This document shows positions 2,439-47,436 of a stretch of DNA of 64,000 nucleotides, piece after piece. The position numbers and the translations under genes were made by a program. Within the stretch, counting starts at the first letter, position 1. Every line of letters begins with the position of its first letter. Under the pieces are notes generated by a model. The model had not been told where the DNA came from and made no database searches. It saw only the letters and a list, made by a program, of their open reading frames with translations. The DNA comes from Escherichia phage EK5, in sequence record PQ805429.1. One strand, written 5' to 3'.

Positions 2439-3243
2439 GCTCCCTGAAGTTGCTATAGTGGATGCTGACGTTCTTCGATATGAAGTGGGTGCTCTTACTC
2501 AGGAGCATCCCTTTCTTGACACAGGACGTGTTCCAGTTGATTACAATTTCATGATTGAACGACTTCAGTACAAGATAGATACAATCATTGCTCGCTCAGG
2601 TTGCAGCAAGGTTGTGTTCTACTTCAGCGAAGGTGGTAACTTCCGTTTTGATGTTGCTAAGCAGCAAGACTATAAAGCAAATAGACCTCCCGGAGAGAGA
2701 CCTTTTCACTGGCAAAATGTTGGTGATTATATTAAAGGTAAATATGAATACATAGATGTATTTGGGAGAGAGGCTGATGATGCACTAGCTGAAAGGCAAC
2801 GTAGGGATAAGAACACTATCATCTGTACTAGAGACAAGGATTTGTTGATAACTCCCGGATGGCACTACCGTTGGGCTTGTGGAGAAAGACAGAAAGAAGT
2901 TCCTCCTCACTATGTATCTGATTTAGTTTCATGGCAAAACTTCTTCTATCAGATGTTGATTGGAGATGGTACAGATAATATCCCCGGATGTGGGGAACGT
3001 AAAGAGGTTATGTGGGGTGGTAAACTTCAGCTTCGACGTCAAGGTATAGGGAAGAAGGCAGCAACTAAATTACTAGCTGATGTTACAGATAAGTGGACCA
3101 TGTATCATATAGTACGAATGGAATATTATAAGAAGTTCGATACTGAAGATGAAGAGAAGATGCTTGAGAATGCTAGGCTGCTCTTTGTTGGTCAGACTCC
3201 GGAAGATTTATTTGATTGGACATGGTTGGATAGAGAATGGTAA
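2425..3243 (+). CDS. 5'-3' exonuclease / flap endonuclease (T7 gp6 or T5 D15 type)
   Basis: PIN/FEN motifs YKANR, GREADDALA, TRDKDL, GDGTDNIPG, GIGKKAATKLL; start uncertain (ATG 2416 or 2425; ORF opens at 2401). Confidence 0.8.
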   Translation: MEEVKLPEVAIVDADVLRYEVGALTQEHPFLDTGRVPVDYNFMIERLQYKIDTIIARSGCSKVVFYFSEGGNFRFDVAKQQDYKANRPPGERPFHWQNVGDYIKGKYEYIDVFGREADDALAERQRRDKNTIICTRDKDLLITPGWHYRWACGERQKEVPPHYVSDLVSWQNFFYQMLIGDGTDNIPGCGERKEVMWGGKLQLRRQGIGKKAATKLLADVTDKWTMYHIVRMEYYKKFDTEDEEKMLENARLLFVGQTPEDLFDWTWLDREW

Positions 3244-3749
3244 CAGATTATAGATCTAGTAATACCCCAGAAGACATTAGAGATTTATGGCAAACTCCTA
3301 AATGGCTGTTTGATTTCTTTAACACAAGGTTTGAATTCTCCTGTGATATAGCATCTAGTGACAAGAATCATCTACTAGAAAAATATATAACAGAGGAAAT
3401 GAATTCTCTAACCTATGATTTCTCTGAGTTCAGAAACACTTACACTTGGTGTAATCCTCCATATTCAGATATAACTCCTTGGGTTGACTTGGCAATCAAA
3501 AACAAGAAACTTAAAGTTGGTACAGTTTTATTACTACCAGCTGATACTTCTGTTAAGTGGTTTACTAAGTGTATAAACCATGCTGATGAGATTGTTTTCA
3601 TAACAGGTGGTCGTGTGAGTTTCACAAGAGCAGATACACAGCAAAGTGTTAGTGGTAACACTAAAGGAAGTGTAGTAGTCATCTTCTCCACTGAAGCAGA
3701 GAGACGTAAGCTCTCAACCTCCTATATAGAAAGAGACTGGATAAAATAA
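3237..3749 (+). CDS. Phage-type DNA N6-adenine methyltransferase
   Basis: Catalytic NPPY motif (WCNPPYSD), N-terminal WQTPKWLF and C-terminal GGRVSF typical of the phage Dam family. Confidence 0.75.
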   Translation: MVTDYRSSNTPEDIRDLWQTPKWLFDFFNTRFEFSCDIASSDKNHLLEKYITEEMNSLTYDFSEFRNTYTWCNPPYSDITPWVDLAIKNKKLKVGTVLLLPADTSVKWFTKCINHADEIVFITGGRVSFTRADTQQSVSGNTKGSVVVIFSTEAERRKLSTSYIERDWIK

Positions 3750-34786: not shown

Positions 34787-35891
34787 AATTCTTCTCCTCT
34801 GAATAAGAGTATAAAGGGCACATCATAAGACCTACCCGTAAAGGCCACCTCACATTAACACCCGTGAGAATACCTGTATTCATTTTCGTAGTCTTCTTCA
34901 GAGAAGCTACCGTATTCATCTTCTGTCATACATCCCTCTGATAAAGTTAAGACATAAAGGGGACGTCATCTTTGATGACTACTTCACATTAAGGCACCCC
35001 CATAAAGGCCATGTCACGTTAAGGCCTATCCATCCATGTGCTGTGTTTAAGCTTACCACATTTACTACATCTCCAAGTGGACTTATAAAAGGTGTGAACT
35101 CTTTCATCCCCGTAAGCTTTGCGTATCCGATAGTACTCATGATCACATTTGAATTGCTTAATGATTAACTTAATTTTCCACATAAGTTCTCTTTCAACCT
35201 TATATATAAGAGTTTAAAATTCTGATTTGACCGAGTGGGGCTAGCCGCTTCCCGCGCGTTTCCTAAAAAGGGGGAGTCCTCATTTAAAAAAGGGTTATTG
35301 GCAATGCCTTTACCTTCCCTTTCAACGTTCCACCTCTCCCCGTGCCTACTCCCCGTAATTATTCCCCCGTGTATACTACCCAATACATTAGCTACCCGTT
35401 TATTTAGTACCCCTTTAAAGAGTGAGAGAAAGGCTAGCACTGTATAAACTAGTACAGGCACAATCATAACAGGTCTAATAATACCCATAAGTAATAGTCG
35501 CAGCTCCCCATAGTTTGAGTGTAAATAGTTTCAATAGTAATGATTATGAGTGCAATAATGATGTATGTATTAATTAAGTGGAAAGATTATGTTTCTTTTA
35601 ATTGTTTCTTTTATTCTTTCCTTTTTCAGCGTACATGAGCGTAGCGAATGGTCTTTGATGTTTGAGTTAACTAATTATTTAAGTGGTATATTATTACCGC
35701 ACTATCTTGCATGTTTCCCCGTGGTCTGTCCTGCGGTTGTTGTATCCCCGTTTGTCCTGGTCTGTTGGTCTGTTACCCGTAGTGTTATAAAGTAACAATA
35801 AGAAGTAAGCTGATTCTCTGAGTATGGAAAGTTTAGCAAATTAAATTCCTTTAGTTTTCAGTGAGTTATAGGAAAGTTAGAAAATAAATGG

Positions 35892-35919
35892 TTGACAGCC
35901 TTTTCCTTTATTATATAGT
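35892..35919 (+). promoter_or_regulatory. Sigma70-type early promoter
   Basis: TTGACA, 16-nt spacer, TATAGT; about 45 nt upstream of the first rightward gene at 35964. Confidence 0.55.
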
Positions 35920-35963
35920 TGCGATTGTAGTTTGTAGTTTTCATCAACCATAAGGAATATCAA

Positions 35964-44944: not shown

Positions 44945-45154
44945 ATGCCGGTTAAGACAACCCATGTGATAGGTATGCGAGAGATCATTCGCATTGCCTT
45001 GATGGAACACACAGAACGCAACATTCAACTAACGCAAATCTCTAAGTGTCTTAATTGCTCAAGAGATGTGGCTAAGGAGTTGATGTTTGCATTCCTGTAT
45101 AATGCAGAAGACGAAATGCTACAGAATCATCTGATTCGTTGTGTTAGTCAATAA
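44945..45154 (+). CDS. Hypothetical protein
   Basis: ATG 44945 inside the listed 44903 ORF; terminator follows. Confidence 0.4.
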   Translation: MPVKTTHVIGMREIIRIALMEHTERNIQLTQISKCLNCSRDVAKELMFAFLYNAEDEMLQNHLIRCVSQ

Positions 45155-45159
45155 AGAGA

Positions 45160-45188
45160 GGCTGCCTTCGGGCGGCCTTTGTTGTTTT
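45160..45188 (+). terminator. Rho-independent terminator
   Basis: GGCTGCC-TTCG-GGCGGCC hairpin followed by TTTGTTGTTTT. Confidence 0.6.
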
Positions 45189-45232: not shown

Positions 45233-45409
45233 ATGTCTAAGCAAACAATCAAACATACGCAAGCTGGTTACTCTTATGTCAACTCCCCTTGCTGTGGTGC
45301 TCGTGTCAATCTGGTTAAGGAAGAGGTTCGTATCGTTCAGCGTGGCGCTACTGTTGTTCGCTCATGCTGTGTCTGTGGTAATGACATTTTTATCAAAGGT
45401 AAAGTATGA
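45233..45409 (+). CDS. Small zinc-ribbon protein (58 aa)
   Basis: SD GAGGAAG; two CC pairs (SPCCGARV and SCCVCGND); below the ORF-track size cutoff. Confidence 0.4.
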   Translation: MSKQTIKHTQAGYSYVNSPCCGARVNLVKEEVRIVQRGATVVRSCCVCGNDIFIKGKV

Positions 45410-45657
45410 AAAACTTTCAAGCTGCACCGATAACTAAAGTGATCGAAGTTGATGATGTGATGATGACTGTTCCTCTGAACACTCGTTACATTGCAATTGA
45501 CAGGATGGGTTATGTATGGGCTTGGAAGATTAAGCCTAGCTATAACGCACTGTTCGACGAGTTTGTTTGTACTGGTATTTACAGTCCTACATTCTTGGGT
45601 TTATTTGGAGAGTTCGAAGGTCAGTATAAAATCATCACTCTCCCTGCTTGTGCTTGA
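45406..45657 (+). CDS. Hypothetical protein
   Basis: Start overlaps upstream stop (ATGA). Confidence 0.4.
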   Translation: MKNFQAAPITKVIEVDDVMMTVPLNTRYIAIDRMGYVWAWKIKPSYNALFDEFVCTGIYSPTFLGLFGEFEGQYKIITLPACA

Positions 45658-45664
45658 GGTTAAT

Positions 45665-45826
45665 ATGTTCAAGTGGCTAAAGCGTGTCTTTCATTGTCAT
45701 GATTGGAAGATTATTAATACTCGCCCTCTGGTCTATACAGATTCGGATGGGAACAATGACAAGGGCACACGTTACGTTATTCAGTGTAAGGTGTGTGGTG
45801 ATGTTAGTCATCGTGATGTAATCTAA
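45665..45826 (+). CDS. Small-protein family B, copy 1
   Basis: MFKWLKRVFHCHDWK ... CKVCGD; SD GAGG. Confidence 0.5.
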   Translation: MFKWLKRVFHCHDWKIINTRPLVYTDSDGNNDKGTRYVIQCKVCGDVSHRDVI

Positions 45827-45835
45827 GGAATCATT

Positions 45836-46000
45836 ATGATCAAATGGTTCAAACGCTTCTTTCATTTCCATGAGTGGGAAGATCTTCATACTTATGAACT
45901 GACGATCACAAATAAACTTACTGACAGAGAGCGACAAGGGTTGCGTATCTACTCTCGCTGTAAAGTGTGTGGTCTGCACAAGAAAACAGATCTGATCTAA
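45836..46000 (+). CDS. Small-protein family B, copy 2
   Basis: MIKWFKRFFHFHEWE ... CKVCGL; tandem to copy 1. Confidence 0.5.
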   Translation: MIKWFKRFFHFHEWEDLHTYELTITNKLTDRERQGLRIYSRCKVCGLHKKTDLI

Positions 46001-46008
46001 GGGGTGTT

Positions 46009-46218
46009 ATGTTCTTTCGTAAGAAAAAGCCCGAAGATTCTGGATGTAAACATGAGTGGGTGATCACTGAGAACCTACATATCACCCACGCTAAAGACAC
46101 TCCGGTCGAGAGAAAAGAATCTCGTGTATCTCGTATCTGTAAACACTGTTTGAAAATAGAACAGCATAAAGTTCCCGGTCATATCGGTCACGATGTAGCC
46201 ATTCGTATCTTTAGTTAA
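46009..46218 (+). CDS. Small-protein family B, copy 3 (divergent)
   Basis: CKHEW ... CKHC; SD GGGG. Confidence 0.45.
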   Translation: MFFRKKKPEDSGCKHEWVITENLHITHAKDTPVERKESRVSRICKHCLKIEQHKVPGHIGHDVAIRIFS

Positions 46219-46227
46219 ACAAATCTA

Positions 46228-46303
46228 GCACCCTTAGCTCAATGGACAGAGCAGCGACCTTCTAAGTCGTTGGTTACAGGTTCGAGTCCTGTAGGGTGCA
46301 CCA
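46228..46303 (+). tRNA. tRNA-Arg (anticodon UCU, reads AGA), CCA encoded
   Basis: Hand-folded cloverleaf: acceptor GCACCCT/AGGGTGC, D-stem GCTC/GAGC, anticodon stem GCGAC/GTCGT with loop CTTCTAA, T-arm ACAGG-TTCGAGT-CCTGT, discriminator A then CCA. Confidence 0.9.
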
Positions 46304-47101: not shown

Positions 47102-47436
47102 GGAGTATGTATGAGTTGTTTTGGTGGCGGTGAAGTAGATGACGATGATGACATGGAATCCAACGGTACATGTCCTGATTGTGGATGTGAGACGTTTGAT
47201 GGGGTGTCTGTTTATCCTGCCTGTAGTTACTCACCAGTGATCTGTAAAACATGTGGTGATCAGCCGTGTGACCAATCTTGTTAAGAGAATCTTATGACTG
47301 AAGAATTTTTAGAGTGGTTTGGGAACACCTTCAAAGATTATCTATTCTCTCCAGAAGACTTTGAAGAACTGAAAACCTACACTTGGTTGGCTTGGAGAGA
47401 TAGCCGACGAAAGTTGAACAAGTAAGAGATGATTAA

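Follow-up and report, generated by a model that had tools for sequence, protein, structure and literature searches.

A tandem block of three predicted mini zinc-ribbon genes in the early region of a phiEco32-like phage

Results

Three small genes precede a tRNA-Arg gene

The window analysed here, a stretch of 64,000 nucleotides, carries on its plus strand three small tandem genes, named c1, c2 and c3 (45665-46218), just upstream of a tRNA gene. A first-pass annotation had described three tandem open reading frames (ORFs) sharing a His/Cys motif at this place, each with its own Shine-Dalgarno (SD) sequence, and all of them are present. The first gene, c1 (45665-45826; ATG at 45665, stop codon at 45824-45826), encodes 53 residues (MFKWLKRVFHCHDW...CKVCG) with the layout H10-C11-H12-D-W14 ... 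C41-K-V-C44-G45 and represents the slot-1 allele of the block, a member of phrog_8294. Its paralogue c2 (45836-46000), also of phrog_8294, encodes 54 residues (MIKWFKRFFHFHEW...CKVCG) and reads H10-F-H12-E-W ... C42-K-V-C45-G. The third gene, c3 (46009-46218; ATG at 46009, stop codon at 46216-46218), falls into phrog_13426 and encodes 69 residues when counted from the ATG provided with a ribosome-binding site; its motif is GCKHEW...CKHC, i.e. C13-K-H15-E-W ... C44-K-H-C47, followed by a C-terminal extension (E51, H53, G57-H58-I59 ... A64..I67-F68). The encoded proteins are of 6-8 kDa with a pI of 9.0-9.4, and the hairpin tip of c1 is acidic (DSDGNND).

The translation signals are tightly packed on the plus strand. 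As read from the sequence, c1 is preceded by GAGG (45656-45659) 5 nt before its ATG. The SD of c2 (AAGGA, 45825-45829) lies 6 nt before the start and overlaps the c1 stop codon, while that of c3 (AAGGGG, 45999-46004) lies 4 nt before the start and overlaps the c2 stop codon; the intergenic spacers measure 8-9 nt. The tRNA-Arg(TCT) gene (46228-46303, plus strand; ARAGORN, Rfam 71.9 bits) begins 9 nt after the c3 stop and forms a conserved anchor downstream of a variable block.

The block lies in an early gene region of a Kuravirus

Comparison of the segment 45000-47000 with phage records yielded 97 matches at 90-96% identity, all to phiEco32-like podophages of E. coli and Shigella (genera Kuravirus and Suseptimavirus, Gordonclarkvirinae), and by this sequence relationship the window is a Kuravirus genome. 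The large ORFs form a minus-strand structural cluster, running from about 35.5 kb down to 4.9 kb, and a plus-strand cluster from about 35.96 kb onward, in which the c1-c3 block is found amid many short same-strand ORFs. The corresponding phiEco32 cluster is of the early class by experiment and has been described as likely devoted to host takeover (PMC8948821; PMC4281155; PMC9965538). Between the two divergent clusters, a non-coding gap (about 35490-35960) is the counterpart of the junction between both ends of the linear phiEco32 map; the window therefore appears to derive from a permuted or circularised assembly.

A promoter scan for the block gave fewer sites than shuffled controls and no credible promoter. 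A strong terminator-like hairpin (45157-45180, plus strand; 10 pairs, 6 of them G-C, with a TTCG loop and a T-rich tail) occupies the gap between an ORF ending at 45154 and one starting at 45233, just upstream of the gene run that leads to c1-c3 and the tRNA, with no convincing promoter after it. Two other Cys-rich proteins are encoded near the block on the plus strand: a 58-residue product (45233-45409; CC...(21 residues)...CCVCG; phrog_18461, E=7e-44) and an acidic one of 57 residues (47111-47284; CPDCGC...CKTCGDQPCDQSC). As judged from such motifs, this early region seems rich in putative metal-binding mini-proteins.

The motif singles out four ORFs in the window

To define how specific the motif is, all 989 stop-to-stop segments of at least 30 residues were translated and searched with the profile of the c1/c2 family. 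Both c1 and c2 were retrieved at E<1e-16 and c3 at about 1e-4, together with a minus-strand ORF at 35019-35183 (E about 3e-4, range 2-4e-4), every remaining segment of the 989 having E>0.1. A plain regular expression for the motif selected the same four ORFs and no others. Since two approaches pick only these four, the cluster is not a chance pattern.

The ORF at 35019-35183 encodes 54 residues (MWKIKLIIKQFKCDHEYY...CSKCGKLKH) arranged as C13-D-H15-E-Y ... C39-S-K-C42-G-K-L-K-H and belongs to phrog_7696 by a full-length profile match (E=6.6e-17). All along the kuraviruses it is kept at the left end of the genome (253-414 in phiEco32), and remote members of phrog_8294 cross-match phrog_7696 with E-values of 1e-6 to 1e-3. 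This ORF is a remote fourth member of the c1-c3 motif class. In SU10, CDS 1-3 were classed as early in the SU10 paper.

A large phage family keeps the four ligand positions

Word-indexed searches with single sequences returned almost no relatives. By tblastn against phage genomes, relatives of c1/c2 were found in Pseudomonas Bruynogheviruses (TL, PaP4 and others), Pseudomonas phage ventosus, Synechococcus phages and Acinetobacter phage ME3. The resulting alignment seeded a search that collected 61 proteins, and a profile of 52 sequences was then run against 1.84 billion cluster representatives, giving 2140 clusters at E<=0.001 (106 at E<=1e-10), nearly all of 47-62 residues. The profile search in other phages that the first-pass annotation had called for thus reveals a large family, and the ligand positions are kept in 141 diverse representatives. 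In c1 numbering, position 10 is His in 110 and Cys in 25 of them, position 12 is His in 140 (Cys in one), and positions 41 and 44 are Cys in all 141. Around these ligands, position 14 is aromatic throughout (W 127, Y 11, F 3), and G34 (115), Y37 (121), G45 (140) and K48 (121) are largely retained. A first pair of the form [H/C]-x-H, with a spacing of one residue, is shared by 137 of the 141. Position 10 is Gly in the Bruynoghevirus subgroup, whose members instead have a Cys five residues upstream of the invariant His (C-x4-H); this looks like a ligand that has been relocated rather than lost. In a six-member alignment of the c3 family, H15, C44 and C47 are invariant and the first ligand Cys precedes the His by one or two residues. 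Conservation of the His and Cys positions in homologues, on which the first-pass annotation had staked its reading, therefore holds in the 141 c1/c2-family members as well as in the c3 family.

The family is basic (median pI 9.2; 87% of members above 8). The hairpin tip is its most variable segment, with a mean column entropy of 3.7 bits versus 1.1 at the knuckle, and the distance from H12 to C41 ranges from 23 to 35 residues.

Known domain collections offer little. A Pfam scan of c1, c2, c3, distant homologues and the 141 representatives gave sub-threshold noise (PHD_4, DUF7848, LigT, Usp-48), with a single match above cut-off, that of the ME3 protein to Baculo_LEF5_C; NCBIfam gave no match. 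A resemblance to Pfam DUF1660 ('C..GH.W ... C.RCG') was considered and dropped, as hmmscan returned no match. Nothing about c1-c3 emerged from literature searches that covered phiEco32 early genes, Kuravirus and zinc, and small zinc-ribbon proteins of phages.

Members of the family are encoded in arrays of small same-strand ORFs beside ligases, helicases and similar genes. Across seven unrelated contexts (four metagenomic members and phage records) no neighbour gene recurs, and every context examined looks like that of a lytic phage. A search of one genome per species for 185,579 bacterial and archaeal species gave no confirmed relative at the limited sensitivity used, while four viral contigs matched.

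Several individual members deserve mention. The 182-residue protein P0080 (metagenomic contig, 2917-3465) bears three family modules in one chain (CIHTW...CDVCG, HGHRW...CKECG and PPHKW...CEICG) and is encoded in a phage-like array of small overlapping ORFs; it is a fused counterpart of what c1, c2 and c3 are as separate genes. ME3 gp218 (locus 1450-1662) and its relatives P0031-P0034, P0043 and P0048 have an extra hydrophobic N-terminus of ~20 residues that resembles a transmembrane helix; they show C-K-H in place of H-x-H and are the only subgroup above the Baculo_LEF5_C threshold. The homologue of phage TL (locus about 1495-1665) is unannotated, gp08 overlapping it in another frame. Two candidates were discarded: P0064 (1755 residues, 12 'stretches') is a false positive, namely a eukaryotic Cys-rich repeat protein, and LUZ24 gp12 (locus 1201-1860), which might have passed for a module fused to a larger protein, is a decayed copy without C-x-x-C knuckle that reads through into the neighbour gene.

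The models suggest a one-zinc ribbon with a non-canonical first ligand pair

The AlphaFold2 (AF2) model of c1, built on a 52-sequence alignment, has a mean pLDDT of 83.7 and consists of a helix (3-8) and three strands (14-25, 31-41 and 47-52) forming an antiparallel sheet. H10 and H12 are placed directly before strand 1, and C41 and C44 in the turn between strands 2 and 3. For c3 (3-sequence alignment), the model is of low confidence (pLDDT 60) and displays the same order of elements, with strands at 15-28, 31-44 and 50-55. Structure prediction had been suggested at the outset as a check, and it returns a zinc-ribbon topology for c1 and, at this lower confidence, for c3. The small zinc-binding fold proposed by the first-pass annotation is thereby supported, through the conserved ligand positions and the predicted topology, from which metal binding would follow. 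We thus predict that c1, c2 and c3 would each be a stand-alone one-zinc ribbon. In zinc ribbons, both ligand pairs sit in C-x-x-C(H) knuckles. In the present proteins, a single residue instead of the customary two separates the ligands of the first pair ([H/C]-x-H), so that they form a variant within this class.

A Foldseek search of the PDB with the c1 model placed the NrdR zinc ribbon first (probability 0.99, E=0.24, TM 0.53, 24-29% identity over 41 columns), and in BFVD the matches were all to small uncharacterised proteins of phages. Sequence searches of the PDB with both family profiles gave nothing significant, the sub-threshold matches being mostly RNA-binding zinc ribbons (eS26, bL32, eL37, eS27, aIF2-beta and Csl4).

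The N-terminal pattern M-[ILF]-[KR]-[LW]-[LF]-[KQ]-x-L-F, conserved in the 141-member alignment, and the transmembrane-like extension of the ME3-type proteins could suggest that the ribbon is attached to the inner membrane through a hydrophobic or amphipathic N-terminus, e.g. for exclusion or the regulation of a membrane protein. We consider such an association very unlikely. The segment in c1/c2 has 9 residues and is too short to span a membrane, AF2 turns it into the short helix 3-8 at a lower confidence (mean pLDDT 69 for the first ten residues), and the long extension occurs in a single small subgroup only.

c1 and c2 are tandem duplicates, and c3 is of another family

At the protein level, c1 is 39% identical to c2 (E=8e-13) and 22% identical to c3 (E=0.008). 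The phrog_8294 profile matches c1 (E=8.1e-25, residues 1-53 on profile positions 1-56) and c2 (E=1.5e-17) over their full length, whereas c3 is matched by phrog_13426 (E=3.9e-36, residues 2-69 on profile positions 3-74 of 78). Three direct repeats on the plus strand relate the DNA of the first two genes: a 58-nt repeat at their 5' ends (D1, 45664-45721 and 45835-45892; 72% identity, 171-nt spacing), a 15-nt repeat over the CKVCG knuckle (D2, 45785-45799 and 45959-45973; 93% identity) and a 14-nt repeat over the last codons, the stop and the next SD (D3, 45815-45828 and 45989-46002; 86% identity). All spacings fall within 171-174 nt, and the hairpin-coding middle has diverged past recognition. 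At the level of sequence, these scars show that c1 and c2 came from the tandem duplication of a unit of ~172 nt (171-174) carrying the gene with its ribosome-binding site.

The first-pass annotation had taken c3 for a divergent third copy. The shared motif layout stands, but c3 belongs to a separate family (phrog_13426) and is not a recent duplicate. Its DNA has no similarity to that of c1/c2, and its relatives in Vequintavirinae do not match the c1/c2 profile at E<0.01. In a profile-profile comparison, the phrog_8294-type and c3 families align in the same register, H..W on H..W and CKxC on CKxC, with a probability of 28% and E=6e-4. On these comparisons, c3 is best assigned to a family of its own that has the architecture of c1/c2, and it is possibly a very distant relative of them. 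Outside kuraviruses, c3 relatives (33-50% identity) are found in large myophages of the Vequintavirinae, among them Cronobacter phages CR3, CR8 and CR9 and phages of Pectobacterium, Enterobacter, Serratia and Acinetobacter.

Substitution rates were computed from orthologues in seven related phages. Pairs of c3 orthologues gave dN of 0.012-0.05, dS of 0.19-0.53 and dN/dS of 0.03-0.14; for the slot-1 alleles of phiEco32 and EK010, dN was 0.083 and dS 1.70 (dN/dS about 0.05), and the comparison of SU10 with XT73 gave dN 0.08 and dS 0.67. Ratios well below 1 indicate strong purifying selection and, together with an SD for each gene, are counted as support for real genes. It might be argued that these are chance or decaying frames with a coincidental motif, as all are annotated merely as hypothetical proteins, some relatives do not have them, and in LUZ24 a decayed copy is fused to the next gene. 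This reading is effectively refuted by the size of the family (2140 related clusters), the conservation of its ligands and the dN/dS values; the individual SD sequences and the confident AF2 model of c1 also argue against it. These data establish c1, c2 and c3 as real, selected, translated-looking accessory early genes of Kuravirus.

Copy number and alleles vary between close relatives

We compared the segment between a conserved gene of 83 codons (45406-45657 in the window) and the tRNA in eight genomes. Both phiEco32 (where it is gp107) and SU10 have the slot-1 gene alone, XT73 combines slot 1 with c3, and SU7 has c2 and c3 without slot 1. All three genes are present in EK010, in Bas86 (with a slot-1 product of 48 residues and a short hairpin), in Bas91 (where an HNH homing endonuclease precedes the tRNA) and in this window, whose slot 1 is c1. 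At least three types of slot-1 allele exist, with 42-55% identity between them. More broadly, c3 occurs at >90% identity in about 47 records of the kuravirus group, and 33 records have two places matching c1. Since close relatives carry one to three copies and swapped alleles, the genes are accessory and exchangeable.

Three features of this segment were recorded beside the copy number. The c2 orthologue of SU7 (locus 1501-1665) is missing from the public annotation. In Bas91 (locus 2754-3176), the gene for the HNH homing endonuclease is an insertion that separates the c3 orthologue from tRNA-Arg and overlaps the annotated tRNA start by ~10 nt; its absence from the window marks the c3/tRNA junction as an insertion hot spot. 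A functional tie of the block to the adjacent tRNA was rejected, because phiEco32 and SU10 have the slot-1 allele beside the tRNA position without c3, and it is also contradicted by the endonuclease that separates c3 from the tRNA in Bas91.

Discussion

We propose, with a probability of about one half, that c1, c2 and c3 are basic, stand-alone zinc ribbons whose target is nucleic acid or host machinery handling it, the hypervariable hairpin tip setting specificity. This role as a binding module is inferred from the basic character of the family, the DNA-binding nature of the nearest solved fold and the location of the highest variability at the hairpin tip. In the proposed mechanism, the proteins would be produced early, from transcripts made by the host RNA polymerase. 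The [His/Cys]-x-His pair at the start of strand 1 and the Cys-x-x-Cys-Gly knuckle between strands 2 and 3 would together hold one Zn(II) at the base of the long beta-hairpin, and the short amphipathic N-terminal helix (M-hydrophobic-K/R-W/L-L-K-x-L-F) would probably cover one face of the sheet. The rigid zinc-clamped sheet could then act as a scaffold for small basic modules that would bind nucleic acid or its handling machinery, with the tip as the determinant of specificity. Several paralogues would provide several specificities, which would fit non-essential, fast-turning-over genes of host takeover. Within this variable slot ahead of the tRNA, c3 is the representative of a different family. 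Against this proposal, the acidic tip of c1 is ill-suited to direct contact with nucleic acid, and no annotation, significant PDB sequence match, literature report or recurring neighbour gene points to a function.

Many small early phage proteins are protein inhibitors and not nucleic-acid binders. It is possible that c1-c3 are protein-binding inhibitors or adaptors, for instance of a host defence system or enzyme, whose hairpin tip contacts the target without any binding of nucleic acid. The location of the block within an early host-takeover cluster, its presence/absence pattern and allele swaps between near-identical phages, and a hypervariable tip that is acidic in c1 would all agree with such a role, as would the failure to find the family, at the sensitivity applied, in representative genomes of 185,579 bacterial and archaeal species, and the lytic-phage-like look of all contexts examined. 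However, no match to any of the anti-defence or inhibitor families tested was obtained, the family is basic overall, and there is no pointer to a particular target. A pure inhibitor role, e.g. in anti-defence, is nearly as likely as the nucleic-acid reading, especially because the tip of c1 is acidic.

Both options could be accommodated in a broader view, which we put forward as a speculation that is rather doubtful at this stage. The [H/C]-x-H ... C-x-x-C-G mini ribbon may be a widespread, essentially phage-restricted effector scaffold whose zinc-clamped sheet shows a hypervariable hairpin 'finger' to host targets, which could be defence proteins or parts of the nucleic-acid machinery. On this view, the natural three-module fusion of the metagenomic phage contig and the kuravirus block with its one, two or three genes would serve as arms-race cassettes in which several specificities are stacked.

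Unknown functions in host takeover and anti-defence reside mainly in small early phage genes. Those described here have many deposits as 'hypothetical protein' and fall into PHROGs of unknown function. What is new concerns the assignment of a fold, the [H/C]-x-H first half-site and the size of the family, as well as the DNA-level trace of the duplication, the variation of copy number between close relatives and the detection of a further, remote member (the fourth) elsewhere in this genome. More than 2000 sequence clusters share a clear and testable metal-site signature with no Pfam entry, solved structure or literature. Natural variants with one, two or three copies exist in nearly identical E. 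coli phages, several of which belong to the BASEL collection, and make simple comparative or deletion experiments possible. Nevertheless, the work reveals no new mechanism and mostly re-annotates 'hypothetical proteins' as probable zinc ribbons. These belong to a well-known kind of small protein, and c1-c3 are in this respect fairly ordinary, of moderate-to-low interest unless a target is found.

How do these proteins compare with described systems? The catalogue entries phrog_8294, phrog_13426 and phrog_7696 are all of 'unknown function' and describe neither fold, motif nor mechanism. Among characterised phage proteins, Mu Com and P2 Ogr/P4 Delta are likewise stand-alone proteins of ~60-70 residues with one zinc site that bind nucleic acid or RNA polymerase; their ligands are C-x-x-C pairs and their roles are in late-gene regulation. 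No sequence relation surfaced in our searches.

The C-terminal ribbon of TFIIS type, found in baculovirus LEF-5 (PF11792), is also three-stranded and of similar size. Factors of this kind, inserting their hairpin into the secondary channel of the host RNA polymerase, would fit the reprogramming of this enzyme by phiEco32. Kuraviruses are indeed known to remodel it with gp79 and gp36 (PMC12276001; PMC8948821), and the ME3 homologue scores 25.4 bits against Baculo_LEF5_C, just over the cut-off of 24. For c1-c3 this relationship is nonetheless very unlikely, as the window copies give no match even at E<=10 and none of the 141 representatives matches. The first ligand pair differs as well, being H-x-H and not C-x-x-C. 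Moreover, the TFIIS hairpin tip bears an invariant acidic pair, while the tip is the least conserved part in the c1/c2 family, which has no conserved acidic residues there.

The closest solved fold to c1, albeit weakly so, is the N-terminal zinc ribbon of NrdR (PDB 9fxk, 9gex, 7p37 and 9fzf), a basic, DNA-binding domain (PMC12051234). Over ~40 aligned residues, NrdR and the c1 model share the ligand pair, the long beta-hairpin, the C-x-x-C knuckle and the third strand. Yet c1-c3 are not members of the NrdR family, since their 53-69 residues leave no room for a second domain and the family profile does not match NrdR chains. In NrdR, four cysteines hold a ribbon that is fused to an ATP-cone controlling oligomerisation, whereas in the kuravirus proteins the first pair is [H/C]-x-H and the ribbon stands alone.
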